Shown piece after piece: positions 8,840 through 57,572 of a stretch of DNA of 64,000 nt. Both the position numbers and the translations under genes were made by a program. The DNA comes from Chiloscyllium plagiosum (Eukaryota). The DNA is taken from positions 2,404,007 through 2,468,006 of the forward strand of contig NC_057756.1 of assembly GCF_004010195.1 (NCBI RefSeq). Direction: 5' to 3'. The notes below the pieces were generated by a model. That model had not been told where the DNA came from, made no database searches, and worked only from the letters and a program-made list of their open reading frames with translations. Within the stretch, counting starts at the first letter, position 1, and every line of letters starts with the position of its first letter.

Positions 8840-8860
8840 ATTTAAAGAAGAGCAAAGAAG
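8840..8860 (+). CDS. 21-nt heptad micro-exon, type A, (D)LKKSKE
   Basis: ttatattgttacAG|ATTTAAAGAAGAGCAAAGAAG|GTtgga; homologous to 21046 and 57552; open in phase 1. Donor is weak. Confidence 0.7.
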
Positions 8861-9266
8861 GTTGGAGCTTTCATATTTCTCTCTGATGGATATATCACAA
8901 TTTATTTAAAGTGAGTGAACACATGCTCACAGCAGTGACTAGATTGCAATGATAAATGCGCCTGGGTTTGTTTTACATTAACAAGCTCCAAGTGTAACTT
9001 TAACTATGCTCACTAGAACTTAATTGTGTACCAGGTAGATAAAGAAATGAAACATAATTTGCTGGACATATGGAATATATTTAGTTGTTTCAGAAATAGG
9101 CATTATAGTAACACATTACTAAAATTGTTATGTCGAAGGAATAAATAATCTTGCTACTCTCCCGTTTTTATTTCTGTTTCGTTCGTACTGACATGATTTT
9201 GAATTTGCTATAATTTCGAGTTGATATCGGCTGTATTAGAAATTATAATCTGGATTTCACCTTCAG

Positions 9267-9287
9267 ATCTGGTGAAGGAACAAATAG
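9267..9287 (+). CDS. 21-nt heptad micro-exon, type B, (D)LVKEQI
   Basis: tttcaccttcAG|ATCTGGTGAAGGAACAAATAG|GTaggt; phase 1. Confidence 0.8.
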
Positions 9288-10282
9288 GTAGGTACAGATA
9301 ATTTTACGAGACGAAAATANNNNNNNNNNNNNNNNNNNNNNNNNNNNNNNNNNNNNNNNNNNNNNNNNNNNNNNNNNNNNNNNNNNNNNNNNNNNNNNNN
9401 NNNNNNNNNNNNNNNNNNNNNNNNNNNNNNNNNNNNNNNNNNNNNNNNNNNNNNNNNNNNNNNNNNNNNNNNNNNNNNNNNNNNNNNNNNNNNNNNNNNN
9501 NNNNNNNNNNNNNNNNNNNNNNNNNNNNNNNNNNNNNNNNNNNNNNNNNNNNNNNNNNNNNNNNNNNNNNNNNNNNNNNNNNNNNNNNNNNNNNNNNNNN
9601 NNNNNNNNNNNNNNNNNNNNNNNNNNNNNNNNNNNNNNNNNNNNNNNNNNNNNNNNNNNNNNNNNNNNNNNNNNNNNNNNNNNNNNNNNNNNNNNNNNNN
9701 NNNNNNNNNNNNNNNNNNNNNNNNNNNNNNNNNNNNNNNNNNNNNNNNNNNNNNNNNNNNNNNNNNNNNNNNNNNNNNNNNNNNNNNNNNNNNNNNNNNN
9801 NNNNNNNNNNNNNNNNNNNTTTGTTCCAAGCAATCAAACATAATTCAATGGTTGTCTGAAGCATACAGCAAGGTATACAATTCAGATCAAAACAATCATT
9901 GACAGGAAATTCGAAAATTCTTGACTGTTAAATGGGAATAGGAGATTGTGAATAAACGCATGTGTTCAAAGTCCAATAAGATAGTCCGGAGTCACAGAGC
10001 ATGAGCTGATCATTGACATATTCGAGAAGGATTCTTTTTGGTTAGTGGTAGTGATTTCTAAAATTAGATACATGGAGACTAAGATATCGTAATTTTTTTT
10101 AAAAAGAGAGAAAGTAGGGCTTTTAGTGGAGAAGATATCCAAATAAAAACACAAAGCAAAGAGATATGGTTAGTTTTATAAAAAGTTTTGATCTGTGGAA
10201 AAACAGATGTCGTTTTTAGCGACAAGCTCACCAACTTGGCACGATGGTGACATCACTGACGTCTTGGTGTAACAGTTCATTA

Positions 10283-12445
10283 AAAATAAATATCACAGAA
10301 GATATAGAATGTCGGGAAGCTGATGGTGACAACTTGAAAAATGACAATATCACAGAGGATGAAGTGATGGATGTCTTCAAACGCATAAAGGTAGATAAAT
10401 CCCCAGGACCTGATCAGGTGTTCCCTAGAAATTGGTGGGAGTCGAGCGAAGTGATTGGTGAATTGCCAGACGACTGAATGTTGGCTAACGTGTTACCACT
10501 ATTTACGAAAGGAGATAAGAACAAGTCAGGGAACTATAGACCAGTGAGTCTGATGTCAGTAATGGTCAACCTGTTGTAGGAAATCCTGAGGTGCAGATCT
10601 AGACACCCGGGACGGGCCTCTCGGTTCCGTGATCAGTGATAGGAATCACTCGGTGTACGGTTTGCTTCAGAAAGGTTCAACAGTTTATTCCAACACTGGA
10701 CACAGGTTTGTCCAGCAACACAGAGGTTAACAGCTTCTGTGTACTTGGAGAAAACTGTGCAATTGAATTTGAGCAATAAGCCATGTTCATATGTTTCATC
10801 AGACATTGTACAACCTTAACTACAAAGGAAAACCAAGGTGACATAATGGACAGAAAGTTAACCCAATTATATATCCAAGGAAACAGTATTGTCTTATGCA
10901 CATTATCGTCTCATGCTTGTGGCTCAAGGTTAGTCAGGGTAGTCAATTAATGTCTTATGATTCATTTTATGAAGAGTTCTTTTTATGCTTTATCTTTTAA
11001 TTCAGCTAGCTCAGCAAAGCAGAAATCCATCTTCCAACCATTTTAGCACCGTATCAATCCTGAAGACATTTTGCTATGTTACTTTATTTAAAAAAAAACA
11101 ATTTTGTGGTTAATAAAAGCTAACGTAGATGTGTTGGTTCTGGCAATAACCTAAATCCCGGGTTTAGATCCTCAGAGGGCCAAAGGTACGTGTGTTTGGA
11201 AACGCAAGGATTGATTAGTGGTAGTCAACATGGTTGTGTGCGCGGAAAATGATGTCTCACAAACTTGACTGAATGTTTTGAAGAAGTAATAAAGAGGATT
11301 GATGAGGGCAGAGCGGTAGATGTGATCTATATGGACTATAGTGAGGCGTTCGACAAGGTTCCCATTAGGGAGACTATTTAGCAAGGTCTGATCTCATGGA
11401 ATACTGGGAGAACTAGGAATTTCGATCCAGAACTCGCTCAAAGGTCGACGACAGAGGGTAATGGTGGAGGGTTGTTTTTCAGACTGAATGTCTGTGATCA
11501 GTGGAATGTCACAAAAATCGATGTTGGGTCCACTTCCTTTTGTCGTTTATACAAATGATTTCGATGTAATCATAAGAAGTGTAGTTAGTACGTTTGCAGA
11601 TGACACCAAAATTGGAGGTGTAGTGGACAGGGAAGAAGGTTACGTTAGATTACAATAGGATTTTGATCAGATGGGCAATGGGCCGAGAAGTGGCAGATGG
11701 GATTTAATTTGGATAAATGCGAGGTGCTGCATTTTAGGAAAGCAAACCTTCACAGAACTTAATGGTAAGATCTGCGGAAGTGTTACTGAACAAAGAGACC
11801 TTGGAGTGCAGGTTCACAGCTGCTTGAAAGTTGAGCCACAGTTAGATAGGATAGTGAAGAAGGCGTTTGTTTGGATGTCCTTTATTGGTCAGAGTATTGA
11901 GTACATGAGTTGGGATGACATGTTGCGACTGCACTAGACATGGATTAGGCCACTTTTAGAAAGGGTTCAGAAAAAACTAACAAGGATGTTGTTAGTGTTA
12001 ATGGATTTGAACTAGAGGAATAAGCTGTACACGCTGTTGCTGCTTCCCTGGAGTGTCGGAGGCTGACGGGTGACATTTCAGATGTTTATGAAATCATGAT
12101 GGGCATGGATAGCATAAATAGAGGTTTCTCCTTGGTGTGATAGAGTAGGGAACTTGAGGGAGTAGATTTAGGGTGAGAGAGGAAAGATATAAAAGAGACC
12201 TAAGGGACAACATTATCTCGCTGACGGTAGTACGTGTATGGAATGAGCTGCTAGATGAGATGGTGGATGCTGGTACAATTGCAACATTATAAAGGCATCT
12301 TGATGGCTATAGGAAGAGGAAGGTTTGGAGGGATATGGGCCGGGTATTGGTAGGTGGGACTAGATTAGGTTGCGATATCTGTTTGGCATGGACAGGATGT
12401 ACCGAGGGTTCTGTTTCCGTGCAATACATCTCTCTGACTCTATGG
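10283..12445 (+). mobile_element. CR1 LINE ORF2 (RT) remnant through 3' tail, split by a solo LTR
   Basis: IKVDKSPGPDQVFPR; FADDTK motif near 11593; QRDLGVQVHSCLKV; tail ctctgactctatg near 12440. Confidence 0.9.
10592..11174. mobile_element. Solo LTR (583 bp) with 4-bp TSD, inside CR1
   Basis: TG..CA ends with long imperfect terminal inverted repeat (tgcagatctagacacccggga / tcccgggtttagatcctca); TSD gagg at 10588-10591 and 11175-11178. Confidence 0.8.
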
Positions 12446-15219
12446 CTCACAGTGCACCACATACAGGAGTACAAAAAAGAATGAAAAAAGAAACATAATT
12501 TGAAAAGTGATTAACTTTGCTTCAGGATAACATCCAGTTGTGTCATACCCAATTAATTGGAATTGCTCAAGAAGTATGAAAATCCTCTGAAACTTTTGAA
12601 TGCCTGCAGAAAGAAACCTAGAGCGTGTATAGACGCTCTATAGAATGATATTTTACAATAGAAGTTAATACTCTTTATGAACAATATCACCTGTAATCAT
12701 CCAAAGGACGTTCATCACGCTAAACAGAGATCCAATTATCCTTCACACATGCTCCCAGATAGGGGAAAATTCAATAAACCACGAACATTTGATTTAGTTA
12801 CAAACCACGAAAATTAAAGAAATATATTTATGATATTGCACAAGGACGAACTCTCCAAAAGTGTGCAGTTCACGAACATTTTTGCACTGAAGCTCTAAAG
12901 ATAGAACCCAACATTGCAACCCTTGCAAGTTGCTGTTGTGAATCGGCATTTACCCAAAATGGAAGCTTTCCCACAGAGGCCTCAGAAAGCACGTCTACAC
13001 AAAGACTTGAAAACCAGTAGGCATAGATGTATCGAACACGCCACTACAAGTTTCGCAAGTATTGTCCACACTAGACAAAGCTAAAAAACGTCTTTCGGAA
13101 GCCCCAGAAATCTCACTCACAGCTGGTCCTTGGCAGAACTAGCAGGTCTGCAGTAGCACTTTCTCAAACAATATTCCAGCGTTTCACAGAAAATATGTCA
13201 CTTCATGCATAACGTTACATCACATCTCAACAACTGACTCGCTATCTCCACATACCACAGACGTGTGATTACATGTTTGTCAGATTATAGGCACATCCAC
13301 TTTCCATATGCCACCTTAAATTTCCACTTCACTTATCGAAAGAGCAGAAATAGAAAATAAACGAATGTCTGCCCGACAATCAAATCTGTTTGTTCATAAA
13401 TCGACCCGACACTTACAGTCACTAACATCCACTAAGCACTGCCCTGCATCCAAATCCAATCTCACTGCCTGAAATCTATACAGATCACCCAATCAGCATC
13501 CAGAAATATCACTCCCCTGAAAACTTTAACTTTCAAACTGAGAAACTAACCTATTTAAATGTAACCCCAAATAAGCGGAACTTTGTCATCTAACATATGC
13601 TTCACGTTTTCTAAATCCAACTGCCACTCAATCCTTGCAAAATATTTGTTGCATGTTGGCTGTCACAGCATTTTTTTGAAGCAAACAAAATGATATAGAA
13701 ATTTTAACGTCAGGTTCAGCACTTGTAGACTCCACTTCCAGGCATAAACATTCTTCTGGCCCTCGATGTGAATTGATCTTTGAATTTTCCTGGCTTGCCA
13801 TTTCTTTAACAAGAATGTGTGAGGAATGTGAGTCGAAACTTCCAACCTGATGCTGCTCGCCATATTCATTATGATTTACTTTTTATTGTGTCCACGATGT
13901 CCAGGTTGAAAGTAGTCTTGGTAATATTGACTTCAACATATGTTATACGACTGCGTGACAATGGTCATCTCTGCATTTTCCCTTTATTTTCTGAATATTT
14001 ATGCATTGCAGGCTGAATTTCCCATGAAATATTATGTATATGTGTCATTTGCCTCTTGTGGATAACTTTGATCGTCCAAATGCTGTGATAAAGATTTGGC
14101 AATCAATAAACTTACTGAACTGACAAGTCATACGTGAGAGAGATACATTTAGGACACATGAAGATACTCCTGCCTCACGGCATTTCTGACAATTCTATTT
14201 GCTGACCCTGCTGATGCAGTTGCTGAGACTTGCAGACAGCTCTGCCCCGACTTCGGAGATCAAATACTGTAATATAAAAAAAAAACAGATATCATGACTG
14301 GTTCGGTCTGTTGAGAAATGCATGTTGAAAGAAAAATATGCAAATAATATTTGTGTTACTCTGAGGATATCGATTGGTTTCTTCACATACATTGAATGAA
14401 TCACTAACCAGAAACAAAAAAAAAACGTTTCCTTGGATTTCTAGACGACATATTTGTTCGTCAAAATGAGCAATTACTAAAATTAGAGCGAAATACTATT
14501 CAACAATCCACTGAAAACTACATGGTTGAGAGAGGAAGAAAGACGTTATGGATACGCAGCGTTTCTGCTATTAAAGTCACTGATCGCTTGTACTGTTCAA
14601 AATATGCATGTTCTGCAAGGACTTGTAGGTTTATAATAATTAGCCACTGCGTTTGAGACGTTTGTCACGGAGGAATAAAAAACAAACTTTTGCAACAAAA
14701 AAGTAAATTTCTCTCCGATAGTACTTAAGAAGTACAAAGAATGTGAATGCTTCAGTGAAACATTTCTCCTGCAATGTTAAAGAGTAAACAATTCATTATC
14801 AACATTCTTTCACGGCTGATGATCACAAGTCCTTGCTCATTGATGTTTATCACTCAGCTCTACATTGGACCTGCTACAAAATTATTTTTTTTTCACAGGA
14901 CATGAGCAAGTTTTAAGAAAATAATGTATCTAAACGTTGATAGAGATTTTGTTTATTACAATTGTCCTCACAATATCAAAGGAAAACCGTTTTTCCATCC
15001 AGACTGTGTGCAATACTGCAAAGTGGAAGTAATCTAACATCAAATTATCTAGCTGACAATGTTGATTTATTTTGGTTAAATATCAAGACTTTTTTTGTTA
15101 GTTTCGAGGTGGATATCAGAGACAAATCTCAAATAATTTCTACGTTCCGTAAGTTAGCTTTTGCAAATGAATTCATAGTTAAGACATGTCAAATATTACT
15201 CTTTTCTTGCCTGTACCTC

Positions 15220-16200
15220 GAACAACAGAACATTGAACATTACAGCACAGAACATGCCCTTCGGCCCTCAATGTTGTGCCGACCTGTGAAACCAGTCTGA
15301 AGTCCATCTAACCTACATTATTCTATTCACGCCTATGTGCCTACCCAATGATCAGTTAAATGCCCTGAATGTTGGCAGGTCTACTACTGTTGCAGTCAGT
15401 GCCTTCCAAGCTTCTATGAATCTTTGAGTAAACAAACTACTTCTGACACCTGTTCTAAATCTATCTCTCCTCAGTTTAAAGTCATGTCCCCTCGTGCTAG
15501 TCATCGTCAGCCAATCAAAATGTCTCTCACTGAATAACCCATCAAACCCTCTGATTATCTTATATATTTCAATTAAGACACCTCTCAAGCTTCTTCTGGC
15601 TAGTGAAAACAGCTTGAAGATCCAAAACCTTTCCTCGTAAAATCTTCCCTCCATGCTACGCAACATCTGAGTAAATCTCCTTTTAACCCTTTCCAAAGCT
15701 TCGACGTCTTTCGCATAATGCACTGACCAGAACTGAATGCAATACCCCAGGTATGGCCACAGCAGAGATTTATACAGTTGCAGTATGATCTCATCATTGC
15801 GAAACCCATTCTCTCTAGCAATAAAATGCTTACACACGGTATGCTTATTCACATCCGTCACAACCTGGGTGACAATTTACAAGGATTTATGTACTTGCAC
15901 AACAATATATCTCTGCTCATCTGTACAATCCAGATTCTGAACATTAGCCCAATACTCTGCATTACTGTTACTCATTCCACAGTGAATCACCTGATATTTT
16001 TTCACGTTAAACTCTATTTGACACCTCTCATCCCAGCTCTACATTATCTACGTCCCTCTGGAACATAAAGCATCCCTCGTCAATATCTACAAATCTACTG
16101 ACGTTAGTGTCATCCAAACATTTACCAACACATCCTTGTAAGCACTTATGGACATGGTTTATAAAAATGACAAACGTATCTATTTTTACACTTTCCAGAA
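15220..16200 (-). mobile_element. CR1 LINE 3' fragment
   Basis: ORF 15352-15861 LQLYKSLLWPYLGYCIQFWS..ALERVKRRFTQML, typical CR1 ORF2 C-terminus; repeat tail near 15220. Confidence 0.9.
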
Positions 16201-16812
16201 TTGCTAAAACCTCCTCATTATGAAAATCAATCGCATGTAGCGCAATAATCTGTATCTTGGCATTCTCAAACAATGTATAATTGTTGTCGATTGATGGTGA
16301 TAACAATTCCCAGAGTTATATACTTCTGGAGAGCTCGCAGCTATCAGGATGAGTATTTAACAATAATTATACAGTAAGCAAAACATTCATATTTTAATGT
16401 CCAGGAAGAACTAATTCCACATATATAGAGAATAACGATACATGCATAGATTTAAAGAAATGGGATAAAGTAGAATTCTACTAGAAATGAAAACTCTTCC
16501 ATTAAGAACGAAAGCAGAATTTTTTGACTGATGCATATATATGAAACAAAACGTTCAGAAAAAATCCCAGCTAAAATCAAAAATTAGTGTGTGACTGTTT
16601 GGTTGCAAATGTATTTGAAGGTGGGGGAAGCGAAAGAGAGGGAGAAGAGCAGTATTACATCAAAATCAGAATTGCAAAAAGAAAAATGCATGTTTCGACT
16701 GGTCCTCTTGGAATTTCATGCATTCTGTTCTGCAAATTACGCATTGTGATATTTCATTTCCTCTCAGTGCATTTCAACGGAATTGTTGTTAATATTATTT
16801 TCTGTCATGCAG

Positions 16813-16833
16813 CTCTTGTCAAGGAAAAGTCAG
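16813..16833 (+). CDS. 21-nt heptad micro-exon, type B, (A)LVKEKS
   Basis: attttctgtcatgcAG|CTCTTGTCAAGGAAAAGTCAG|GTatgc; phase 1. Confidence 0.8.
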
Positions 16834-17267
16834 GTATGCACATTAAGAACATCAATGTATTTTAAAGTTTCATTTAGTAAGGACAGGGCAACACAAAGTT
16901 CTGCTTTTTTTAGCTGATGCTGTGATTGTAATAAAGAGAATGTAACTTTTTAAAACTTGTATTCGAACAAAAATGATTATAGCAACATTTGATTTTTTTT
17001 TCTGTGCAAAGGCAGATTTGCTCATGCACTCAGCTAGAATTTGACAGATGCATAAACCATAAAAGACAGTCTAAATAATCCGAAACAAAGATGGTTTCAG
17101 AACATTTGCAAAACAAATAACATAAATTATGCCCAGTTTCTTGTAATAAAAAAAGAAATGAATACAGAAATTAATCTCAGGAGAGGTAAAAGTGATAAAC
17201 ATGAATATGTGAAAGAGTTGTAACTGTTGGTACAAATTCAAGAATGGAGTTGAACACGTGTATCTCT

Positions 17268-17318
17268 CTGTCTGTGTGTGTGTGTGTGTTTGTGTCTGTG
17301 CGTTTTTGTGTGTGTGCA
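17268..17318. repeat. Imperfect (TG)n microsatellite
   Basis: Direct reading. Confidence 0.9.
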
Positions 17319-18987
17319 CACATTGCTCATTTATGTGTCACTGGGAGGCAACTAAAACACAGGCATGGAGAGAGAGAGAGTCAGAGTCACGATGCTTGGA
17401 GGTGGGTGTGGGAAGGAAGCATCACATTCATGCAGTTCACCTTAGTTAATTGAACAAATTGCAAATTGTACCTCCGTCTTTTCAGTATTTATGAAGACTG
17501 AAATGTTACTTAATCTCCTGTGAATTTGGATTTTTAAGTGCAGGATTGTTATTTTTTCTGTTCATGATAACTTTGGCATTTTCACAATGTTTTTGCATAT
17601 TACTTTGGTTAACAGCAGCAACAAATCTTATCAATTTCAAAGAATGTTAGTGCAATAACAAAACAAAATACAGTTTTGGAGACAGATCAGCTGCTATTCA
17701 CTGCAAACCACTACATGATGATTGTAAGTTCGCTCAATAATATTTTCTTAAGTTATTTACGACTTAAACAGTGTTCATGTCAATTTAGTGTATCAAGTCA
17801 GGTCCACATGTCTTTTGAAAGTGTGAGATGCAAAATGGAAAAAAAACCATTATGGTTGAGAAAGAGTTAGAATTAGAACAGGGGGCATGCCAGCTCGATA
17901 GAGTTGACTTGTGTGAAACAGAGAGGAAGAAGACGACAGTTTGATTCACTGGAAATTACTGCGATTGATTTTAATTTGACTTCCATCACACACATAGATC
18001 ATTCGACAAACTTAGCCTCAACCAGACTCAAAGCAAACATGCTGGCACAAATAAATACGATCAACTAGAAATCTGCAGCTGAATCCAATCCTTCATCAGG
18101 TTTCAAGAAAGCCCCCTCGAACAAACTAAAAAAAATCCTGACTCATAACTGGCCACAAAAGTCAACCATCAGACGCACCACCCAGGAATGTAACTCACAG
18201 TGCTCTGGATGTGAGACCATTCCCAAGAACACAACGTGATATGATACCTGTCAAATACATCAAATCTACTCAAACAGTCCACTCGTCAGTTTCCCTTTAT
18301 GCTTGCTGACATGTTTTGCATCTGGCACTCTAGCCCCCATGCGAACAAACTGAACTGGCTCCATGGGCCCCCACACCTGAATATATGTGTTACGTTATAT
18401 TTGCATTGCAGGACTGACCCAGTTGATTATGATTGAAAAAGGAAGAAGACATTGTGTTGGATTTCTCCATGATTCCATCGTCACATGAAAGGAATGGGAA
18501 CACAAACAAAATCAGCTGACATCAGTGGACTGGCAGTGTAGTGATCATATCTTTAATTGTTGCAAACCAAACATTGCAAATATCAAATTGTGAGCACCAA
18601 CTTGATTTTTTTGAAAAACCAGAAAAGAAAACATTAAGAACGTAATCTATAAGAACACAGAAAAATTAGAAGACAATCGCTTTGACATTTATGAAATGTT
18701 TATTATTTTATGTGTTTATTGAAATAAACTTCTCACTCACATACATCCAGAAAGGCACAAGTAAGCGGCAATTTCCAAGTAGCAAATTAGTATAAGAGCA
18801 ATTTACAATTGTGATTACCGCTTCAATGAATAATGAAACTTCTACATGAAATTATTTGTCAAAGTTTTCTGCTTAAGTCACTTATGACAGTATATCTTGC
18901 TTGACGTATGAAGCTAATGGTCAAGTAAAACAGCTTCTGCAAATGACCACAGAGACTTTTTTTATTATACAGGATTTTTTTTCTCAG

Positions 18988-19008
18988 AACATCTAATATG
19001 TCGAAAAC
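18988..19008 (+). pseudogene. Possible decayed type-A micro-exon, (E)HLICRK, no GT donor
   Basis: Strong acceptor ttttttttctcAG followed by AACATCTAATATGTCGAAAAC, partly similar to the 57552 exon, then tagata. Confidence 0.3.
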
Positions 19009-21045
19009 TAGATAACAACTGGCGAGAACAAGGAATGGGAGGAAAACGTAACAAATGCCATATTTAGCACTTCTTAACGCAAATCAAAAACCTCTCGCAA
19101 AAAATCTGATCCAGTCAGACAAAGTGCAGGCGTTGAATTTGGGTATTTATTGATTTATCAAAATTCTTATGCTTGATATATCAACACTTCTCTGATATCG
19201 ATTCACTAACATAAAAATCAATCCAGCTGCCAGATGCTGAGCATGCAACCTATCATTAACAATTTGTAATGATGCTCCTCCTTTAACAAGTTTATCTTTT
19301 TCCCAGCGCTTCTTTCAAAGAGGCCAAAAAGGCACATGTTCTGAAAGTTCTGGGTTGGCATGGTTTAGAGCCAATTTAATTACACTTAACTGATATTGCC
19401 TCAGTTAAAAAGCGTTTATGTTAAAAAGAAGAATCATTTGTACAATGAAAAGAGAATGGCCAGTTCTGTCAGCTTAGCTTTTCTTTGGTTTGATTTGATC
19501 TTTAGTACTTGATATGTTCATGGCAAGCAGTCACACAGTTGTAGAAGATTCTGGACCCAAGGAAACAAATCCATTCGTGTTCACTCTCTCTGACATCTCT
19601 CCTGTAAGATCCTAAGTGGTTTTGTTTTTGGCCATTTGAGCTAAGAAATGGTTATGGGGATTGTTACAAGTATTTGTAATAGCATAATTAAGTATGGACG
19701 ATCGACCGGATTTTCCGGTTGGTTACGTTATTCAGCATTTTGTTCTCTTTTGTTTGCATTTCATTCGATAATGTTGTAAACAAATTATTTTGTTTAAAAC
19801 TAAGTAGTTTGATCAAATCCATCCCTCTCTGAATATCCACGTACGCCTCCTTAAAACAACTAGTCAATTTACTGGCTGAGTTACTTTCTTGGAATATTTT
19901 CAGGGGGCTCGGCCTGGTCCATAGCAATTGTTCTCACAGTAATTGCCAACCTGCATGAGCATTCCACATCAGTTCGAAAATCAAAATTCAATCGTTGCTC
20001 TCAACAAACTTTAAACTAAGAAAAAGCAAAACCTCTTATTCAAAACACAAAACTTAATTATGAATTAAATATCGTGTTTGGGAATAAAGCTGAGAAAAGT
20101 AAGATGTAGTCGTTTATGTTATGAGCATCATCGAATCGAAAAAAATCAGAATACAAATAAAATCAGTAATTCCAATGGAGCATTGATCAAAATGTCAAGA
20201 ACAAACGTGCAGGCAAATTCATTGTGTGAACAGAAGTAGAATGAAACATTGCATGAGGCTTGAGGACATCGATAGATCCTGCTCATATTTCTGAATGCAT
20301 ATGGTTTATGATCCTCAGCAGGTGTGAGATATTTCCAAATATCGGCCAGTGATGTCTCTGAAATCTCTGCTGTAAACAAATGGCAAAGTATTTGGTAATC
20401 TCATTATTAATGTTATGAACGTAACACGTTAATGGCATGCTTGCATCATTAGCTGTTGGTTGCTTTCTCCAAATGTAACAAGTGCAATCACAGTTTCAGA
20501 TGTGAGCTGATGCCGTTGCTACAGCTTGTGGGCAGCATAAGCAAAACACGTTCTTCTTCCTCCAAAAAATACATTTATGAAACTTTGACGTCACACCATA
20601 GTTAAGGAAAATGCTCCATTGACGATTATTGGTACAGAGGATAAAGATTAAAATTATATGCCTGTATCTGATATGACATATTTAACATATCTTTATTTCT
20701 CTGAATTTCACTGAGCTAATTCATTTAGAGAGGGGGGTATTTCGAACAACTAAAGTACAAACACCTGACGGGTTTTAGTAACGTACAAAGAGTTCCAAGC
20801 TTGTCCCTCGCTGACATTAATACTTGAACATTGAGTTCGAGAGTTTCTTTTGAATATGAAACAGCGCTGCGGTCATACAATCTCTTCAGTTTTGCTTCGA
20901 AAGGCAGGAAATGACATTTGCACATACAACATAAATGCCACAGTTATTTTCAACCTAATCAAAGTAGAATGATGATTTTCGTATAACTTTAGAGCAATAA
21001 TTAGGAAATGACTTTTAAACATTTTTTTTCTTCCATGCAATACAG

Positions 21046-21066
21046 ATTTTAAGAAGTGTAAAGAAG
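21046..21066 (+). CDS. 21-nt heptad micro-exon, type A, (D)FKKCKE
   Basis: ttttttcttccatgcaatacAG|ATTTTAAGAAGTGTAAAGAAG|GTatag; 18/21 identical to 8840. Confidence 0.8.
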
Positions 21067-23381
21067 GTATAGTTTTTTAACACATTCTTTCTGTTGACAA
21101 ATTAAGGTGCAAAGCAACGCCAGTATAAGATATATTTTTTTCAATGTTCATTGATTGACACAACATAGTAGGTAACGCAAATGCCGACCACGTTAAGACA
21201 ACTGCAATGATAATAAATCCTAGGCGAACAATTTGATCATCAGAGAGAGTTGGGATTATGTTTATTGACAATTAATTCGATGCAGAAATATAACTGCAAC
21301 TGTCTTGCATACAGAGAGTGACATAATAAGACATATATTATTGGATTCACATTATATCCAAATATTATCATTTGAAGCTTATCTGTTTAATCGTCTTGAT
21401 AAATTTCGATGGTATGGATTAAAATAACTCTTCATCATGTATTGTAATTCTTTAAAAAATCACACTGGAAAGAATAGAGAAATTGTGACCATTTTCAGAC
21501 CGCAATTGACACCACTAACCCGATGTGAATATTCAGAAAAAATAAAGGAACAGAAGTATTTAACGGAGTGACAAGCCTGACTGAGAATTTGACGAACTAC
21601 GGTTGATTGAATCTATGAATGCTTCTTGCCCACGCAATTCTTGTAATGTTTTGCATCGCTGAAAATCAATATATTCCTCTCTACTTTAGAACAAGGCAAA
21701 TTTAATTTTCCATCACGAGAGAATTTCAACATGCACACTCCGTTGAGTAAATAGAAGTTTATCTGTGAAACAATAATTAATCACAATTATTGCATTTATA
21801 TCCTCTCATTTTATGTTTCCCAGACTTTAGAATATGGATGCTATCTATCCATTTACAAAGTTATAAGTTTAATCAGAATATTTCTCAATACTCGAGATTC
21901 CAGAAATTCAGATCCAGTTTATCCATTGTCCTATTCCAAGTTGCTCACTGCTGTCGTTAAAAGATCTGTTGAACATTAATTGCAAACCACGAGGACATAT
22001 TTTCCTTGAAATAAGGAGGCCAAAATTTCCCATGGTGCCTGCTATGAAGTGTAGTGACGTTCTGATGGCATCGGGACAACAATCCACCACTCCACTATGC
22101 AAATCCATAAATTATAATTTTGTACATTCGAGTAACCTGGCTGATATATTTCTGCAGGATCATGTTAACCTTTAGCGAATCTTCAATTAGTATGCTTAGA
22201 TCTCCCTTTACATCCTTAATGGACAATCTCTCATGATTTCAGAAATCCAGTTGGATTATGTCAGTGCATCCTTTTGTCTTTCATTTCATGGAAGATTACA
22301 TGCAAATGTTTCGACATTATGACCAATTTCCGATTCAGTTGTGCACTCATTGAGTCTGTTCAAATCTTTGGGAAACTCAAAGTCTCCATTAAACAAAAAA
22401 ATAACTTCCACTGAACGCGTATTACCAGGAAATATGGGGATATCACGTTTTTACCCAAAATCCAAAATTATCATAGCAATTTTCAACAAATGGCAACAAA
22501 TAATATTCTTTTGTGGAAACTCAATTGCGAAGGCTTCATATCCATAATGACCCATTAACCCTATTTCTCTGTTTACCATCTGTTAGTAAACAATGATCAG
22601 TCATACCTGAACACCGTTCAGATGAATTTTAGTGTGAATTTCTTTTCAAAGTAGCCAAAACTCGGACACATTAGAAATATTATCTGAAGAGCTATGTATG
22701 CCAGATTCAGCGAATCTCCATTAGCAGGTGTTCCTAATATATTCAAATGAAAAATCAAAAGCATGTGTGTCAAACATAATCTCTCAAGCGCAAATTGATG
22801 CTGATTATGTCCAAGCTATTTGTTGTCTTCCACGATAGAGTCATGTCGTATTTAACCTGGAATATTTTTCAAATAGAGATGCACGGAGGACAGATATTTG
22901 TCGCACACTCTCCTCTTGAATCGTGACATAATTTTTAAAGTGAAAGCTTTCCAACATTACATGCAACCGTTCTTTAATGTACATCCGTTGTACACAGATT
23001 GGCATAGATTTTAATGTATTTTAGTAGACATAGTCAGATACGTCTTGTCTTTGTCCTTAATAATTCACAAACAAATGTAATGAGTATATTTTCCATAATT
23101 ATTCAGCTGATTTTAAGTCATAGTGCAATCTTCGCTCATGTTATAATCATTAATTACTTAATATTGCAAAACAAAGAGTGTCAATGAAGGGTATTTTTTG
23201 ACAATTCGTAAGACCTAGTCGTGAGTAGCCCTACAAGTGACTTATGACTTATTTCCAGGAAACCTTTGAGAACTAAATCCAGACTCTCATCCTCCAACTG
23301 TCAGGGATCATGAGTTTTACCCATATAAGACATGGATTATAATTTTACCGTATGCGAGATTGTTACGAGATGGTGTAAAAT

Positions 23382-35329: not shown

Positions 35330-36965
35330 TATTTAAAACTGCCGCCGCAAATTGACTGCCTCAACCTGTCCGTAACTCTCAACCACTCCAACCTGTCACC
35401 CTCACAACGCTCAGCCCTCCACTCCCTCTCCTTTAACACTCTGATTACAACCAAACCAGCAAACGAGATGTGCACGGTTGTAGTTTGCTTTACTGACCTT
35501 GTTCACCACTGAAGCCAGGAGATATCCTTGCAGATACCATCTCCTATTGCCCTCAAAGACCACTTCACCTACCATCCGCAAACCATCGTCTCCCAGACCA
35601 TTCACAAATTCATCATGTGGGAATTTCTCCCACCCAGAGTCTCCATACATTTTTCCCAGGATCCCGCACCACCCGCTTCTCCATCCTCCCAAAAATTCAC
35701 AAACCTGACTGACCTGGTCAACAAACTGTCTCAGCCTGTACCTACCTCGCCAAATTCAGCTCTGCCTACCATGAAACTGTCCTGCCCACATAGTTCATGA
35801 ATCTACATTCGAGACACCACCAATGCCCTTCCCCTCCTCAATACTTTCCTTTCCTCAGCCCCCAATGTCTTATCTTGAACATGGGCATCCATTCCCTCAA
35901 CACGTTAATACACCACAATGAAGATCTCAAATCCGTCTGCTTCTTCTTCTCATACGATCAACCAATAACCCTTCACTGACGCTCTCATTGGCCTGGCTGA
36001 ATTTTCACTCAACTTCAACAACTTCTCCTCTCAATCCTCCCACTACCTCCAAATAATCGGCAAACCATGGACATCCGTATGGATCCTAGCTATGACTGCC
36101 TCTTTGTCGGGTACGTGGAACAGTCCATTTCCCACCGGTGCATCAGCACCAGTCCCCACTGCTACGTCGATATTTGTATCGATGCTGCCTCGTGCTCTCA
36201 CGACGAGGTTGAACAGTTTCTCACCTTCATAAACACTTTCTGCAAAGTCATCTGATTCATTTGGACCATCTCGGACCTTTCCCTCCTCTTTCTGGACCTC
36301 TCCATCTCCATCTCTGGCGACCAATTTAACACAGACATTTACGACAAACGCACTCACTCCCACAGCTACCTGGATGAGACCTCATCCCACCTTATATCCT
36401 GTATAAACACCGTCCTTTATTCCCAATTCCATCGCCTCCGCTGCTTCTGCCATTGAACATCCCAGATAGCCTCATTTTTCAGAGACTGCAATTTCCCCTT
36501 CCATTTGGTCGAGATGCCTCCAGCGCATATTCTCCACATCCCACTCCACCACCCTTGAAATCCACTCCTTTAATCACTAACAGGAACAGAATACACCAAT
36601 TCTCACCTTCTAACCCACCAAATTCCACAAAGATTATATCATGCTACGCCATCTGTTACCTGCGAACAGACTCCACCCCTAGGCACATATTTCCCTCCTC
36701 ACCTCAATCTGTGTGCTGGGGAGACCATTTCTTCCGTGAGTCCCTCGTCATATCCACGCCCACAAATAGTCCAACCACACAAAGTGGCAATTTTCCCGGC
36801 CACCGCAGGAAGTGCAAAACGTACTCCCACACGTCCCACCTCTATCCAAGGTTCCAAAGAATGTTTTCACACCTTTCAAATATTTGCCTGTACTTCCACA
36901 CACTTTATCTGCTGTACCCGTTGTGTTCAGTGTGATTTCCTCTACATCGGACAGACAGGTCATAC
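35330..36965 (+). mobile_element. Degenerate Penelope-like element RT and GIY-YIG endonuclease
   Basis: MDPSYDCLFVGYVEQS..YVDIC (matches MGVSYACLFVGYVEQS..YIDDC of the 46465 element); CTSTHFICCTRCVQCDFLYIGQTG. Confidence 0.88.
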
Positions 36966-37486
36966 ACCGAAATGTCATCCTGGCTGCCACTGAAGTAACA
37001 TGGAACACCAAACAGCCCACAGACACCATAGGCAATCTGAAAATCCCCAGGCACCCTACTAGCCCAGAGAAACAGATGGATAACCCTGAGTGCATCAGAA
37101 AGGAAAATTTTAAAAGGATTCATGGATAAGAAAAACACTATTAAGCTAACCATGAATATAGGGTCATGACTTTATAATGAACAGACGGACTATTTTGAGA
37201 AATCATCGCCTCGCCAGGTCAGTACCGACGGCTGCCACCGGATGGAGAATGATTGCACAAAGCATACCAGGACAGCTTTCTGAGCTTGATTAAGTTTTCT
37301 GTGCAACAGATTTCTTGTCTATATGTCTATGTTGTCTTTGTTGTTGATGTGTGTCAGCTTAACCAGTGTTTTTTTTAGAGTGTAATTCTCTTTCTGGTTC
37401 TGGTTATAATTTTGACGATAGTGTGGCTTTTTCCAGAGTTATCGTCTGTTTTCATTGTCGAATTCCGTGCTGGAAAAGAACAACAT

Positions 37487-38548
37487 GTCAGGCACCGTCC
37501 GAGGGAGAGGGGAATCGGCTTTTCCCGAAAGAACCCTTCATCACGAATGAGGCTTGTGATCCGAGGGGTGGAGAGATAAATGCGAGGGCTGTTGGTCTGG
37601 CGTTAGGTATCTGGGCGTGCGATCGGTATATAGAGGTCGTGGTAAAGGTCGCAGTATGGAAAGAAGGGTGCAGCGGATTATTGGGAAGGAAGATGGACAT
37701 GTAGGGCAGTTCACGAGGGTGGTGCCGAGTTGGAAGGCTGGAAGTGGGATAAGTTTGGTGGAGGAGAAATTCAGAAACTGCTGAAGACCACATTTATGCC
37801 ATATGGTTGAGGGTCCCAAGGCAGAAGATGAGGCAGTCTTCCTCCAAACGTCGGTTGGATAGGGTGTGGCGATGGCGCATGTGCAGTGCCTGAATATCCT
37901 TGGTCGAGTAGGAGACGGAGTTAGGCAGCGGGGCAGTGCGGTTGTGTGGTGTGGCTGTCTCGGAGATATTACTGAACCACTCTGCAAGTCGGCATCCTGT
38001 CTCCCCAGTGTCTCCCCAAGGGAGATTGCATTGGGCGCACTTTATTTCCCTCTCCCACTCCTCCAAAGACATGCAGGTCTTGGGATGCACCATCACAACA
38101 CACTCACCACAAGGTGCCTGGAGGAAAGATACCTCATCTTCACCCTTGGAACCCTCCAACCACACGGTAACAATGTTGTCTTTAACAGTGTCCTCAGTTC
38201 ATCTCCCGTTAACTTATCGCAAATTCAAACTTCCAAGGCAGCACCACCCGTATGACCTGGCGAACATGTCTATCTTCCTTCGAATAGATCTGCTCCACGC
38301 TCCCTTCTGACCTATGACATTAATTCCTACTTCTATCTAAATTCACACTCTAAGCTACCTTGCCCCTAGCCACACCCCCTCCCATTTATCTTTCCACCAC
38401 TCGGTTGACAATCCTCATTCCTGATGAAGGGCTCTTGTCGGAAACGTCAAATCTCCTTCTCCTCGGGTACTGACTGACGTACTGTTTTTTTTTCCAGCAC
38501 CATGCTCTCGATTCTGATCTCCTGCATTTGCAGTACTCACGCTGTCCT
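37487..38548. mobile_element. Two Penelope 3' ends/pLTRs in inverted orientation (37487-38010 minus; 38020-38548 plus)
   Basis: GETGCRLAEWF..RRLEEDCLIFCLGTL (minus) and RCLEERYLIFTLGTLQPHG (plus); plus copy ends gcagtactcac near 38540. Confidence 0.82.
38421..38448 (+). ncRNA. Minimal hammerhead motif, stem II partly decayed
   Basis: CTGATGA-a-gggc-tctt-gtcg-GAAAC-GTC. Confidence 0.6.
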
Positions 38549-46464: not shown

Positions 46465-48220
46465 AGGAGAAAGTAAGGACTGCAGATGCTGGAGATCAGA
46501 GCTGAAAAATGTGTTGCTGGAAAAGCGCAGTAGGTCATGCAGCATCAAAGGAAAAGGAAAATCGACATTTCGGGCATAAGCCCTTCTTCAGGAATGAGGA
46601 GGGTGTACCAAGCAGGCTAAGATAAAAGGTAGGGAGGAGGGGATTGGGGGAGGGGCGTTGTGAATACGATAGGTGGAAGGAGGTTAAGGTGAGGGTGATT
46701 GGCCGGAGAGGGGTTGGGGCGGAGAGGTCGGGAAGAAGATTGCAGGTCAAGAAGGCAGTGCTGAGTCTGAGGGTTTGGACTGAGAAAATGTGGGGTGACG
46801 GGAAAATGAGAAAGCTGGAGAAATCTGCATTCATCCCTTGTGGTTGGAGGGTTCCTAGGCGGAAGATGAGGCACTCTTCCTCCAGGCGTCGTGTTGCCAT
46901 GGTCNNNNNNNNNNNNNNNNNNNNNNNNNNNNNNNNNNNNNNNNNNNNNNNNNNNNNNNNNNNNNNNNNNNNNNNNNNNNNNNNNNNNNNNNNNNNNNNN
47001 NNNNNNNNNNNNNNNNNNNNNNNNNNNNNNNNNNNNNNNNNNNNNNNNNNNNNNNNNNNNNNNNNNNNNNNNNNNNNNNNNNNNNNNNNNNNNNNNNNNN
47101 NNNNNNNNNNNNNNNNNNNNNNNNNNNNNNNNNNNNNNNNNNNNNNNNNNNNNNNNNNNNNNNNNNNNNNNNNNNNNNNNNNNNNNNNNNNNNNNNNGGA
47201 TGCTACGATGTGTCTGGAGGTTGGTGTGGTGGTAGGTGAGGACCAGTGGGGTTCTGTCTTGGTGGCGATTGGAGGGGCAGGGTTCAAGGGCAGAGGAGCG
47301 GGAAGTGGAGGAGATGCGGTGGAGAGCATCGTCAACCATGTCTGAGGGGAAATTGTGGTCTTTGAAGAAGGAGGCCATCTGGGTTGTTTGGTACTCCTGG
47401 GAACAGATGCGGTGAAGGCGAAGGAATTGGGAATATGGGATGGCGTTTGTACAGGGGGCAGGGAGGGAGGATCTGTAATCTATGTAGCTGTGGGAGTCAG
47501 TCGGTTTATAGTAAACGTCCGTGTTGAGTCTGTCATCCAAGATAGAAATGGAGAGGTCTAGGAAGGGGAGGGAGGAGTCTGAGATGGTCCAGATAAATTT
47601 GAGGTCCGGGTGGAAGGTGTTAGTAAAGTGAATGAACTGTTCAACCTCCTCATGGGAGCACGAGGTAGTGCCGATACAGTCATCGATGTAGCGGAGAAAA
47701 AGGTGGCGGGTTGTGCCAGTGTAGCTGCGGAAGATGGACTGTTCCACATATCCAACGAAGAGGCAGGCATAGCTGACTCCCATGCGGGTGCCCATGGCTA
47801 CTCCTTTGGTTTGGAGGAAGTTGGAGCATTGGAAAGTGAAGTTGTTCAGTGTGAGGACCAGTTCAGTCAGTCGAAGGAGGGTGTCAGTGGAAGGGTACTG
47901 GTTGGTTCAACGGGAAAGGAAGAGCGGGGGGCTTTGAGGCCTTCGTGATGAGGGATGGAGCTGTATCGGGACTGGATGTCCATGCTGAAGATAAGGCGTT
48001 GGGGGCCGGGGAAGCGAAACTCATGGAGGAGGTGGAGGGCGAGGGTGGTGTCCCGAACGTAAGTGGGGAGTTCTTGGACTAAGGGGGACAGGACTATGTC
48101 AAGGTATGCAGAAATGAGTTCGGTGGGGGAGGAGCAGGCTAAGACAATGGGTCGGCCGGGGCCGTCAGGTTTGTGGATTTTGGGCAGGAGGTAGAAGCGG
48201 GCGGTGCAGGGTTGTGGGAC
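46465..48220 (-). mobile_element. Relatively young 5'-truncated Penelope-like element (family 1): RT, GIY-YIG mostly in gap, pLTR
   Basis: ORF 46617-47795 MGTRMGVSYACLFVGYVEQS..FLRYIDDCIG..FTNTFHPDLKF..LPFLDL..YYKPTDSHSY; candidate TSD tttact at 46459-46464 and 48221-48226. Confidence 0.95.
46564..46591 (-). ncRNA. Minimal hammerhead motif in the pLTR
   Basis: CTGAAGA-a-GGGC-ttat-GCCC-GAAAT-GTC (one substitution in the stem III region relative to 1518). Confidence 0.7.
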
Positions 48221-48767: not shown

Positions 48768-49619
48768 AGTCAATGAATTATCTTTGCTCTCGCACCATCT
48801 CAAAACTATTCATTGATCAAATATCACCTTTCAAACCAAAAAGCAAATTCTTCTGACTGGGCTGTGCTATGAAGAGGGGTATTTTGTGTATATTTGTTTT
48901 AATAGAGAGTTATAAAAAAGAAGTAATGAGAAGGCTGTGTAAATGCAACAGTTTGTGTGGCAGTTTTCTTATTTTGAAGTTCGATCAACAGAAACAGCCT
49001 TGATTGATGTTGCCAGTTCTCACTGACAGACACTTCTAGCTTCATGCTTCTTACATTTTAGTTTCAAAGGCATCTGCAGGTGTCTTGAGAAAAGAGCATG
49101 TGTTGTTTCCTCTCTCTCAGTCGCAGCACGGAGCTGGTATTTCTTTTTCGTTTGTGGTCCTTCCATATGATAAAATGTGATATCTGCGTTTGAATTCTTC
49201 CAATAGTTGTCTGTATTTAGAATGTTGCTACACTGTACTAAAGCAGTTAATTAGCATGAGTTAGTTAATTTATTTTTCTGATGTTTTACATGAGAATTGA
49301 GGTATTCACAGTCTTTCTTTCTTCTGTTGTATTATAACTATTATTTGAATAAATTGTGTTTTTCTTAACATCGCATAGTTTGACCAGGTAAATTGAATCC
49401 GGAACAAAATACATTACATTTGCCTTTACAGTTCGATAAAAAAAGTTGCAATCTCGGCTACTTCTTTAAAAACATATTTTGAGGTGGCCTAGTCTGTATC
49501 ATAGCATTTCAGTGTGATTAGAAATTTTAAAACAGAGACATTCGAGTATAGTGTTTATAAAAGTACACTCGGAAAAAAATATTAAGGAAAGTTTGTGAAT
49601 GTTGACTAGATATGTGAGA

Positions 49620-52230: not shown

Positions 52231-52423
52231 TATGGCATATTCTTGATTAGAAACTCCAATGAAAGCATATTTTGCAAAAGCGAGAAAGAGGCATAAAATG
52301 AGCAGGAAGTATTGTACCTATCACCCGTTTCTGTAACTTTCCTTGAAATTGGTTGTTGAATGGAACGTTATTTTCAATTGGAAATAACAAGGAAAATCTT
52401 GCAATGCTTTGTTTTCCTTTCAG

Positions 52424-52444
52424 TTCTTTTGAAGGAACAAACAG
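52424..52444 (+). CDS. 21-nt heptad micro-exon, type B, (V)LLKEQT
   Basis: ctttgttttcctttcAG|TTCTTTTGAAGGAACAAACAG|GTgagt; consensus splice sites. Confidence 0.88.
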
Positions 52445-53737: not shown

Positions 53738-53820
53738 CTGGTGATTGGCATGATGGGTCAGCACTACGGCCTGCTGTCTCACAGTGCGAGGGACGTGATT
53801 TCGATTCCACCTTAGGTAAT
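53738..53820 (+). mobile_element. tRNA-derived SINE head (HE1-like), degenerate
   Basis: tggcatgatgggtcagcac..gctgtctcacagtgcgagggacgtgatttcgattcc; A/B-box-like pattern resembling elasmobranch HE1 SINE as recalled, not database-checked. Confidence 0.5.
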
Positions 53821-54279
53821 CAGGCAGTTGATATTCTCAATGACCACTTACAAAATTAAATTCTTTGAAAGATTTTCGATGGATTAAACATAGACATAAG
53901 GGCGGCAGGATCAAAAATAACTTCCAAACTGAATGAAAAATTGAGTGTCTGAAGGAACAATGACTGAACGTTTCTTCATTCATCCTTGTGCAATTGGCTG
54001 TTTCTACCTCGGTGCTGCATTAAATTACTGAAGACATGTAATTCTGCGCCAGCCAAGCAGCAAAGAATTGGTACAACTGATTCTATAATTTAGCCGGGAA
54101 TGTGCTAAAAAAAGAACTCTATGTCATGGCTGCAAAGTAAATAAAAATAAGAATGAATGCACACTGGTAATTAACGTCAGGACACTTGGTGTTTATCATC
54201 AGATGGAGCTCACATTTTGGTTTCATAAATTGGTATATTTTGAATATACGACCACAGCTTTTTTGCTTTTTAGATTAAT

Positions 54280-55110
54280 AAAATGGAGGCTGTGTAGAAA
54301 GAAAAAATCCCTGTGCATTATCTGATACCGTACAGATGTGGCAGGACCTGTAGCAATGAGAACATAAATAATCCACAAATGGCTGCTAATGGATTTAATG
54401 AATGGACAAAAGCTTTATAAGACTATGTGAAGGTGGGAAATTGCGAGGGCATGCAATTTTCTTGTAAGAAGTAAACGTCAGACAATTATTTATTTGAATA
54501 GAGACGTCTGTACAGTCAGAGGGACTTCTTAATACATTGGTAGATGAATATTACACAAAAATAGGCAATAGGAGGAGCAACTACAGTTGTGTTCGCTCTG
54601 CTGCCGAAAGAATGTTGTTAAACTACAAAGAGTGCAGAAAACATTCACAGGAATGTTCGTGAGACGGGAAGGATCGAGTTACTGTCAGAGGTTGAAAAGG
54701 CTGGGACTATTTTTCGTTGAGCGCTTGACGCTGAGGTTTTGACAAGTTGATGGTTTAGATAATCATGATGGAACACAAAACACGAATTAAGAGGCTTTTT
54801 CCAAAGTAACAGAGTCCAAAATTTACTTGACATTGATTTAAATGTTAAAATGTTTCTTTTTAAATGAGTGAAGGGGCAAATGTTTTCCATATAATATGGT
54901 GCATATGGGGAAGGAAATGCTGGAGGAAATTATAAAGGCGGATCCAAATGCATCTGAAATACATTTTAGACATTATTACTGATAGGAAAGCTTTAAAGGA
55001 TTATGGCCCTAGGGCAGACAAATGGTACTTGTCTAGTTTAGTAAAACCAGCTGGCATGGAGCAGTTTTTTTCCAAAAGGCCTGTTTCTGTATTGTATACG
55101 TCTATGACTA
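54280..55110 (+). mobile_element. Highly degenerate CR1 3' fragment
   Basis: Ends ggattatggccctagggcagacaaatggtac...ctgtattgtatacgtctatgact, similar to other CR1 tails in the window. Confidence 0.6.
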
Positions 55111-57551
55111 TAACTGACGCAGAAAATTGAAAATCCGTGAAGTGATGAATTGAGAAGGATTCAGACGTTCGCAATACTGGAGAATTGTTAAGAATTTGGA
55201 GATTGTTGTTGCCGGGAATACAATGATGTGATCCACAACTTGAAATCAATAGGCCCTCATTGGACCAAATTCACAATAAAGTCACTAGAATCATTATGTT
55301 AATGAAAATAAAACTGATCAAGAATAGCCAAAGACGTTCGTGCATTATACATAAACGTTTAGACAAATGAGGAATTGCCTTTTTGAAACATGCCTATTGC
55401 TGATTTCGGTGGCAAGAATTTCCTTTAATATGGATGTAGAAGAGTTCCGCTTGGAGGGTATCTTCAAACAAGAGGACAGATGTGCTGTAGATGTAATCAT
55501 GCTTTGAAAATTGATTTTAAATTGACTTTTCATATTCACAAGAAGTTGGGTATAACTGTATTGATCCACACCAGAAAAATTACGAGGAAGATATTTTTTC
55601 CGGATACAGCCGGTATAAAATTGCTTGAGTTACCAAAATAAAGATGACTATGGTATTTTGATAGGCAATTGGTGTTGAGGGCTTGCCAACCGAGTGTTTG
55701 ACCTATTCAAAGGTAGGGCAGCATTAAGAGGATGAATAGACTGCTCCTGCTTCTCGCGCTTACAGCAGTTATTTCTACCAGGTATGTTAATAGTTCAACT
55801 GTAAGAAAAACATAAATGAGACAGAATGAATAATATATAGCGAAACACAATGATACACCTGCTATTATATTATGGTTGAACGAAATGTTCATTTTTATTC
55901 GGTTTCTTCGAATTTGGGCAGACTTAAAAATGACAGATGTTGCACCACAAAATGCGCAGAATAAATAGAATATAACAGGTAATAAATTTTAACAATTTTT
56001 AAAGTGTAGCTTTGATAGACCATTATTAATATTTCTAATAGGTTCTGCCGTTAAATTCATCGTATGAACTGTACGAAAATTGTACTACCGTTGAGTACTT
56101 TTGAACATAAACGTAACAGTTTTTTTTTGTCGTTGCACAGAGGGACAGTCAATTGTAAAGTCTCCCAGATTGAAAGTGAAACATTCTGAAAGTCTTGGTC
56201 AATTCAATGCAGTTTGTTTCTCTAGCTGAAACGTCTACCGTGCAACAAATCCACGCAGATCAATATAGGGACAGGGATAGGGAGAAAGATAACAAACTCA
56301 TCTGCGTGATAAATATATATTTCTAATAAGCGAAGCTGAAACATCTGTGCTGGCAACAAACAATAATGATAACTTACCGCACTAATTCTGCAGAGCTGAG
56401 ACTTTTGAAAAAAAAATGTGTTACACTCCAGAATTGAAGTGACAGAGAAAGTGTGTGCTGTAATAGAATAAAGAATTAGAAAAGATTAGATAAACGAAAA
56501 ACAGCTGAAATTAAAATTTCTCTGCGAATAACCGTATGATAATAGCTAAACTTGTGCAATAATGGCTTAACACTGTGAGATTTTGATAATTTTGGAATTC
56601 TTGATGGAGCCTGAGAGGATGAATCTTTATCGAGAAACATCAGCTATTGTGATAATTTTTCTGCATACTAGAATTGGATTCAGTGGTAAAAAGGACAAGA
56701 TAATAGCAATGTTGTTCAACTGTTGAGCAGATATATACACATATTTTCAATATTACTTCATAGTACTGCCACTTGAATGTCTGGGTAACATTATAATTTT
56801 GGTTTATGTTGCCGTTTGGCACATGCCCAAGAGCAGGCATGTATGGATAAAAAACATTGAGCATCTACATCCCAGTAGGTTAATGCAATTTTGCAGGTGA
56901 AAATGCCACTGAGAAAATTGGTCTCTGAAATTGCTTTTATGAAGACATACAATAATAAAACAAATGATGTATTGTTTACCCTAATTTAACAATGTCGAAA
57001 TGTCTGTTGATTCCTCGCGTATATCAACAGGGATAGACTCCATAAAGGGGATCGATAAGTTATTCACAATGTGTTAAATGGAACATGCATATGGAGTAAA
57101 GGTATTTTATACTATACCAGCAAGAAATGCATATATGTAGAAACCAGAAGTAATTCACAAAATATTCAATCTGAGGATACATCTTGACAAACAGAGTGGA
57201 AAACTTTGTGTGTGGGGGGCGTCGGTGAAAGGGTGGAATGCAAGTGAGAGAGAGAGAGAGAGAGTGGAGACTACAGAGGAGAAGACAAAGCAGACGCTTA
57301 AAGATGGGGTTAGGAAGGTAAGGAGAAACAGAGACGAAAGTGCTGTAAGACAACGTATTTCGAATAAGGAGAAACAGAGATGAAATTGCTGTAAGACAAA
57401 GTATTTCGAAACAAGGCAGTCCAACATTATTGTTTCTGAATCATACTGGATACTTGAATCTGCGGGAAGATTTAATGTTAAATACTGCCGTGTTTGTACT
57501 GTAAATAGTTAGTTGAACTTGGAAACAAGTTATATAATTTGTCTCCTGCAG

Positions 57552-57572
57552 AACACAAGAAATGCAAAGAAG
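57552..57572 (+). CDS. 21-nt heptad micro-exon, type A, (E)HKKCKE
   Basis: atttgtctcctgcAG|AACACAAGAAATGCAAAGAAG|GTaagc; consensus splice sites. Confidence 0.88.

Follow-up and report, generated by a model that had tools for sequence, protein, structure and literature searches.

The 64-kb window analyzed here (G000:C47:2404007-2468006, on contig C47 of the 3.56-Gb genome of the shark Chiloscyllium plagiosum) lies within a real and unusual array of very short plus-strand exons that is very likely coding. A first-pass annotation had reported six segments of exactly 21 nucleotides (nt) in the window. Their coordinates, the pyrimidine tract ending in CAG, the GT that follows each segment, the terminal AG, the phase 1 reading frame, and the encoded peptides were all reproduced. 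Among the 186 AG-21-GT strings in the window, the 6 that passed a filter for the pyrimidine tract and terminal AG were exactly these segments. An untrained splice model, with its threshold chosen post hoc so that all six would pass, gave 6 plus-strand candidates of 21 nt, whereas the mean for any one length and strand was 0.33 (Poisson P = 1.3e-6, or 9e-5 when 68 tests are allowed for).

The division of the segments into two sequence families was upheld. A-type exons match one another at 14 to 18 of 21 bases and B-type exons at 14 to 17, compared with 7 to 12 between the families. The first-pass list of six was correct as far as it went but missed a seventh, A-type exon at position 14722. With this exon included, the reported order A-B-B-A-B-A becomes A-B-A-B-A-B-A, a strict alternation. 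All seven are plus-strand, phase 1 exons. The A-type exons are at 8840..8860 (LKKSKE, with a weak donor, gttgga), 14722..14742 (LKKYKE), 21046..21066 (FKKCKE, with Cys at heptad position d), and 57552..57572 (HKKCKE, with strong splice sites and Cys at d). The exon at 14722 has weak splice sites (acceptor TAG, donor AAT/gtgaat) and may be skipped or decaying. The B-type exons are at 9267..9287 (LVKEQI), 16813..16833 (LVKEKS), and 52424..52444 (LLKEQT, with strong sites). A dead B-type copy on the same strand, at 61432..61452, retains its acceptor but has lost the donor GT. Further exons could be hidden in the N gaps at 9320, 27820, and 46905.

These exons are part of a much larger system. We read 1.89 Mb of C47 (2.10 to 3.67, 3.77 to 3.90, and 3.99 to 4.19 Mb) and cataloged at least 185 plus-strand candidates over about 2 Mb (107 of 21 nt, 43 of 27 nt, and 35 of 36 nt), compared with 1 on the minus strand. 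Stops occur in 2 of the 185, both of them low scoring. The expanded heptad-exon array proposed in the first-pass annotation thus extends far beyond the window, and its six segments belong to a set of well over 100. Unit 1, which contains the window, runs from C47:2237173 to approximately 3203628 on the plus strand (0.97 Mb) and comprises 117 phase 1 entries of 21, 27, and 36 nt, so that candidate coding exons of compatible phase and strand flank the window. It begins with one 27-nt and one 36-nt exon, has some 70 of the 21-nt class as far as position 2760978, and then changes to 27- and 36-nt exons. No catalog entry was found in the 133 kb upstream of it.

Unit 2, a collinear tandem paralog, runs from C47:3279836 to at least 4188974 on the plus strand, with 68 entries in the parts read. 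It repeats the exon order of unit 1, and the later exons of the two units pair up in order. The first 36-nt exons are 85% identical over 52 nt, with little intron similarity. Introns of the array reach tens of kilobases. Repeats make up roughly 30 to 40% of the region, and most of the exons lie in unmasked DNA. Genome-wide, the A-type pattern occurs in 16 places, 15 of them on the plus strand of C47. Single pattern hits on C13, C14, and C9, which lacked a surrounding array, were dropped as chance matches.

Several other features of the region were recorded. GC donors are present in 6 of the 185 array exons and AAG acceptors in 5 (exons 2320559, 2358654, and 3339218 are among those with such sites). 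One pair of 27-nt exons, 3042792 and 3999754, is 96% identical between the units compared with 50 to 80% for most other pairs, possibly reflecting gene conversion or strong constraint. Between the units, at C47:3254146-3254169, there is an isolated 24-nt candidate exon whose splice sites are very strong; it may be the last internal exon of unit 1. The remainder of the window reads as intron with open reading frame (ORF) fragments resembling long interspersed nuclear elements (LINEs), long terminal repeat elements, and Penelope elements, all labeled by recognition rather than with a repeat library. Reverse transcriptase-like frames, Penelope- or LINE-like by recognition, are present at 46617-47906 (minus strand) and 36378-38310, and one of them is broken by an N gap. 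A 46-bp tandem repeat in two copies occupies 57319-57410, 140 bp ahead of the exon at 57552. A 2-kb contig, C62610, carries an identical copy of the exon at 8840. It was considered as a paralog and rejected, being a near-identical second copy of positions 8515-9319 with 1 mismatch in 805. It extends about 470 bases into the gap at 9320, and no additional exon was found in that stretch.

Coding evidence and the predicted rod

The untrained model, applied to 664 kb, gave 61 plus-strand and 5 minus-strand candidates of 21 nt. A model seeded with 80 open exons and scoring nothing but the splice sites gave 65, 24, and 16 plus-strand candidates of 21, 27, and 36 nt, compared with 1, 1, and 6 on the minus strand. 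In phase 1, 63/65, 23/24, and 14/16 of these are open; the corresponding numbers for the other two phases are 36 and 47 (21 nt), 14 and 12 (27 nt), and 5 and 5 (36 nt). In 330 kb held out of training, all 35 exons are open.

Duplicated exons bear the mark of purifying selection. The ratio of nonsynonymous to synonymous substitution rates (dN/dS) was 0.45 over 25 duplicate pairs picked by intron similarity, 21 of which lie inside unit 1, compared with 0.66 and 0.88 in the other frames. Between the units, dN/dS was 0.26 over the 9 pairs with an identity of at least 0.62 among the 30 best pairs (other frames, 1.18 and 1.70), and third positions account for 37 of 68 changes.

Alternatively, unit 1 might be a pseudogene: a duplicate that was recently silenced or truncated and has lost its B30.2 exon and perhaps its start, with expression confined to unit 2. 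In agreement with this, no B30.2 exon follows unit 1, no clear first exon precedes it, and it includes dead exon copies, a stop-forming junction, and several weak donors. A context scan of 2.29 to 2.77 Mb added 25 copies, 3 of them intact and 22 dead through loss of AG or GT. Uniform decay, however, would not be expected to restrict stops to copies that had already lost a splice site, as observed here (3 of 22, compared with 0 of 70 intact copies; hypergeometric P of about 0.012). Such a distribution agrees with the birth and death of exons while selection continues. The catalog contained two stop-forming junctions, one of which vanishes once the missed exons 3114833 and 3118576 are added. The dN/dS below 1 among duplicates, most of them in unit 1, also argues against silencing, unless it was very recent, and we consider a pseudogene unlikely.

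The 114 open exons of unit 1 would encode 946 residues from 0.29% of 966 kb. The predicted product is 19% Lys, 15% Glu, and 12% Leu, with 6 Pro residues, 26 Cys residues, and 3 N-glycosylation sequons. In the 21-nt exons, codon 2 is hydrophobic in 91 of 107 (85%) and codon 5 in 61 of 107 (57%). Cys is present in 31 of the 107, and all 31 Cys residues within codons 2 to 6 are at codon 5. The 36-nt exons are hydrophobic at codons 2, 5, and 9 (74, 82, and 79%, respectively) and the 27-nt exons at codon 4 (67%), columns by which a 36-nt plus 27-nt pair keeps three heptads in register. Hydrophobicity peaks at a period of 3.5, as is expected once exons have seven codons with fixed columns. The A and B types alternate at 46 of 60 positions, compared with 29 after shuffling, a value that was matched in 0 of 2,000 shuffles. 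The array, its single phase, and its heptad pattern support the first-pass view of the window as the interior of a gene in which phase 1 micro-exons, each encoding one heptad, specify a coiled coil.

Ends of the putative genes

The first-pass annotation had placed immunoglobulin (Ig), transmembrane (TM), and B30.2 exons outside the window. For B30.2 this was borne out in part: a SPRY search of the genome identified a plus-strand SPRY exon at C47:4577660 (E value of 1.1e-14; 177-amino-acid frame), 2.1 Mb downstream of the window and beyond unit 2, which was the only C47 match among the 150 of 293 candidates scored. A PRY search gave no C47 match among the 150 of 292 candidates scored. No B30.2 exon was found between the units in a gap-free 76 kb by motif or tblastn. 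With the SPRY exon located beyond unit 2 and none between the units, unit 1 either lacks B30.2 or is spliced through into one 2.3-Mb gene. Elsewhere in the genome, a large cluster of PRY-SPRY exons, probably TRIM genes, occupies 27.5 to 34.4 Mb of C37.

Ig and convincing TM exons were not found. A pattern search of 2,701 plus-strand ORFs of at least 70 amino acids in the 1.89 Mb returned 26 loose matches, none of them Ig on inspection, and Pfam searches of 150 flank ORFs detected no Ig domain. Neither IgV nor IgC was seen in the 133 kb that precede unit 1 or in the 76 kb before unit 2; two N gaps near 2.27 Mb could not be read. No convincing TM exon was found near the start of unit 1. RING and B-box domains were absent by regular expression over 2.20 to 3.17 Mb and by Pfam on the flank ORFs. 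Motif scans between the units for C-type lectin, SRCR, fibrinogen, C1q, and TNF heads gave no convincing match.

A possible start was identified for unit 2. An ATG exon with a signal-like hydrophobic stretch lies at C47:3278120, 1.6 kb ahead of its first micro-exon, and is the only such match in 1.56 Mb on both strands, by a criterion set after the exon had been seen. Its exit phase is 2, compatible with an open exon of 155 nt at C47:3279708 whose end coincides with the donor of the first 27-nt exon of unit 2. We hypothesize that these two exons form the start of unit 2. Unit 1 has no open equivalent of them, and the exons that precede the two units show no significant homology to each other (score of 35.5, compared with 28.5 +/- 5 for shuffled sequence). 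A signal-like frame at C47:2229928 was rejected, as it looks like a T-rich intron tract. A profile built from the peptides of the 36-nt exons lacked power when tested locally.

Origin and architecture of the array

The construction of the array recalls that of chicken BG genes. According to the accessible text of PMC5938342 and PMC4046983, BG genes have 13 to 37 tail exons of 21 nt after signal, IgV, and TM exons; hydrophobic residues of the tail are at exon codons 4 and 7 (PMC5938342). Butyrophilins have a few heptads followed by B30.2 (accessible text of PMC8813856) and occur in cartilaginous fishes (accessible text of PMC12841164). As far as these sources go, the array resembles BG in its long coiled coil, its 21-nt exons that each specify one heptad and split their first codon, its exon number that varies by duplication, and, as may hold for unit 1, its lack of B30.2 (PMC5938342, PMC4046983, PMC8813856). 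The tail of phase 1, 21-nt heptad exons, of which the catalog holds 107, is a BG/butyrophilin feature that is present. Unlike BG as described there, the array has about 117 exons in the 0.97 Mb of unit 1, a paralogous second unit, additional 27- and 36-nt classes, a recurring Cys at d, no Ig or TM exon that we could find, and a hydrophobic seam at codons 2 and 5 rather than 4 and 7. Codons 4 and 7 are hydrophobic in 10 and 9 of the 107 exons (33 of 107 for codon 7 if Ala is counted).

Other families share parts of the design. Like the proposed gene, butyrophilins (BTN/BTNL) join heptads to a B30.2 domain; as they are described in the accessible text, they have few heptads after IgV-IgC-TM, whereas more than 100 heptads and no Ig were found here. 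Small phase 1 exons of 21 and 27 nt also stand ahead of B30.2 in butyrophilins. Guinea pig enterophilins combine a long leucine zipper with B30.2 and have neither Ig nor TM, a layout like that of the proposed gene, and their rod is much shorter than that predicted here. In TRIM proteins with PRY-SPRY, a coiled coil dimerizes and presents B30.2 heads. TRIM coiled coils are encoded by few large exons, and no RING or B-box exon was found by regular expression over the interval given above. In a literature search that left out subscription papers and supplements, no description of this micro-exon family was found, and we regard the array as a new variant of the heptad-exon/B30.2 design.

The first-pass assignment of the locus to the BG/butyrophilin family was not sustained. 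In spite of the BG-like build, we did not file the locus there because no Ig or convincing TM exon was found and the heptad register differs, and the gene is probably not a true butyrophilin. It could still be the hugely expanded cytoplasmic tail of a butyrophilin or BG gene, with Ig and TM exons that are further than 133 kb upstream or fall into a gap of the assembly. Phase 1, 21-nt heptad exons are the hallmark of BG (accessible text of PMC5938342 and PMC4046983), butyrophilins have heptads ahead of B30.2 (accessible text of PMC8813856) and are present in cartilaginous fishes (accessible text of PMC12841164), and introns of the array reach tens of kilobases. However, no Ig frame was found in the 133 kb ahead of unit 1. 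None was found either in the gap-free interval that precedes unit 2, a unit that opens with paralogs of the opening exons of unit 1. In addition, a V-set search in which 150 of 1,319 candidates were scored gave a single C47 match, which lies downstream of the array at 10.2 Mb, and the seam is at codons 2 and 5 rather than at the BG positions. An expanded butyrophilin tail is thus improbable.

A third possibility, which we consider very unlikely, is a type II membrane or secreted protein in which the rod forms the stalk and the head is of another kind (C-type lectin, SRCR, fibrinogen, C1q, or TNF). The Cys residues at d and the signal-like ATG exon before unit 2 would suit such a protein, but no convincing head motif was found between the units and the plus-strand domain downstream of unit 2 is SPRY. 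Chance splice-like strings or repeat pieces, conceivable in a region with this repeat content, are refuted by the strand, length, frame, and selection tests and by the location of most exons in unmasked DNA.

We consider it probable that the seven segments in the window, among about 117 in unit 1, are spliced into a coiled-coil rod of about 950 residues, belonging to a shark protein family that probably ends in B30.2. Every exon would be a symmetric phase 1 cassette, so that copies could be duplicated, skipped, or lost by splice site mutation without breaking the frame. One 21-nt exon would add one heptad (a at codon 2, d at codon 5) and a 36-nt plus 27-nt pair would add three; because 21-nt exons and whole pairs are integral heptads, they could be gained or lost without a shift of the seam. 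Growth may have proceeded by tandem duplication of exon blocks (two-exon A/B and four-exon units) and then of the whole array. The micro-exons would be spliced in order, and the chains may associate in parallel into a coiled coil that measures about 140 nm for each unit, possibly stapled by the Cys residues at d. This length is based on the coiled-coil rise of 0.15 nm per residue. The rod might serve as a length-adjustable spacer and dimerizer for B30.2 heads, most likely in immune or cell surface recognition, with its length tuned by exon gain, loss, and skipping. Separately, C47:2596000-2733500 contains recent block duplications of a four-exon (28-residue) unit with alignable introns and several dead copies.

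Several observations weigh against the B30.2-tipped rod. No spliced transcript was seen to join the micro-exons. RNA runs over window positions 8300-21600 gave almost only repeat-derived reads and no exon joint, and the same runs gave 0 records on the first exons of unit 1; with about 2% and 6% of the two single-cell runs read and 21-nt exons being hard to seed, neither result amounts to an expression test. The SPRY exon and about 390 kb ahead of it (4.19 to 4.58 Mb) lie outside the DNA read. Motif searches and tblastn with a B30.2 query from C37 detected no B30.2 in the 1.89 Mb (best E value of 4), and the link of unit 1 to B30.2 is therefore indirect. No first or last exon is established for unit 1, and the three candidate end exons (a 127-nt hydrophobic exon, a 108-nt exon, and the 155-nt exon) match no database protein. 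The between-unit dN/dS and the tests that use the exon-body model are partly circular, because the 9 pairs were selected for exon identity and open exons served to train that model. The weak exon 2358210 must be skipped, as its junction with 2358654 gives a stop. Finally, the function of the rod is deduced solely from its architecture.

Within the B30.2-tipped rod interpretation, the chances are about even between two arrangements: unit 1 as a gene of its own that lacks B30.2, or unit 1 spliced through unit 2 into a 2.3-Mb gene that ends at the SPRY exon. If unit 1 lost its terminal B30.2 exon after duplication of the whole gene, its stop would have been lost as well, and its last phase 1 exon could splice in frame into unit 2. 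A bolder proposal, which we put forward tentatively and regard as less likely than not to hold in full, is that both units and the SPRY exon make up a single 2.3-Mb gene of more than 250 micro-exons that arose by whole-array duplication and read-through. It would encode a B30.2-tipped coiled-coil rod of 2,000 or more residues, stapled by disulfides and possibly secreted. Exon birth, exon death, and alternative splicing would set the length of this rod one heptad at a time, and the gene would belong to a shark-wide B30.2 class with heptad exons of an origin separate from those of BG. Such a gene would be among the most exon-rich in vertebrates.

The coding share of the array region is less than 0.3% of a megabase, split into pieces so short that they escape ORF finders and most aligners; several megabases of shark chromosome may therefore hide large unannotated genes. 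With live, weak, and dead copies side by side, the array provides a clean natural record of protein length evolving heptad by heptad. If its different register reflects a separate origin, rods built from one heptad per exon arose twice, here and in BG/butyrophilins. A twofold origin would be relevant both to how the BG tail arose and to recognition through B30.2 in the oldest jawed vertebrates that possess adaptive immunity.

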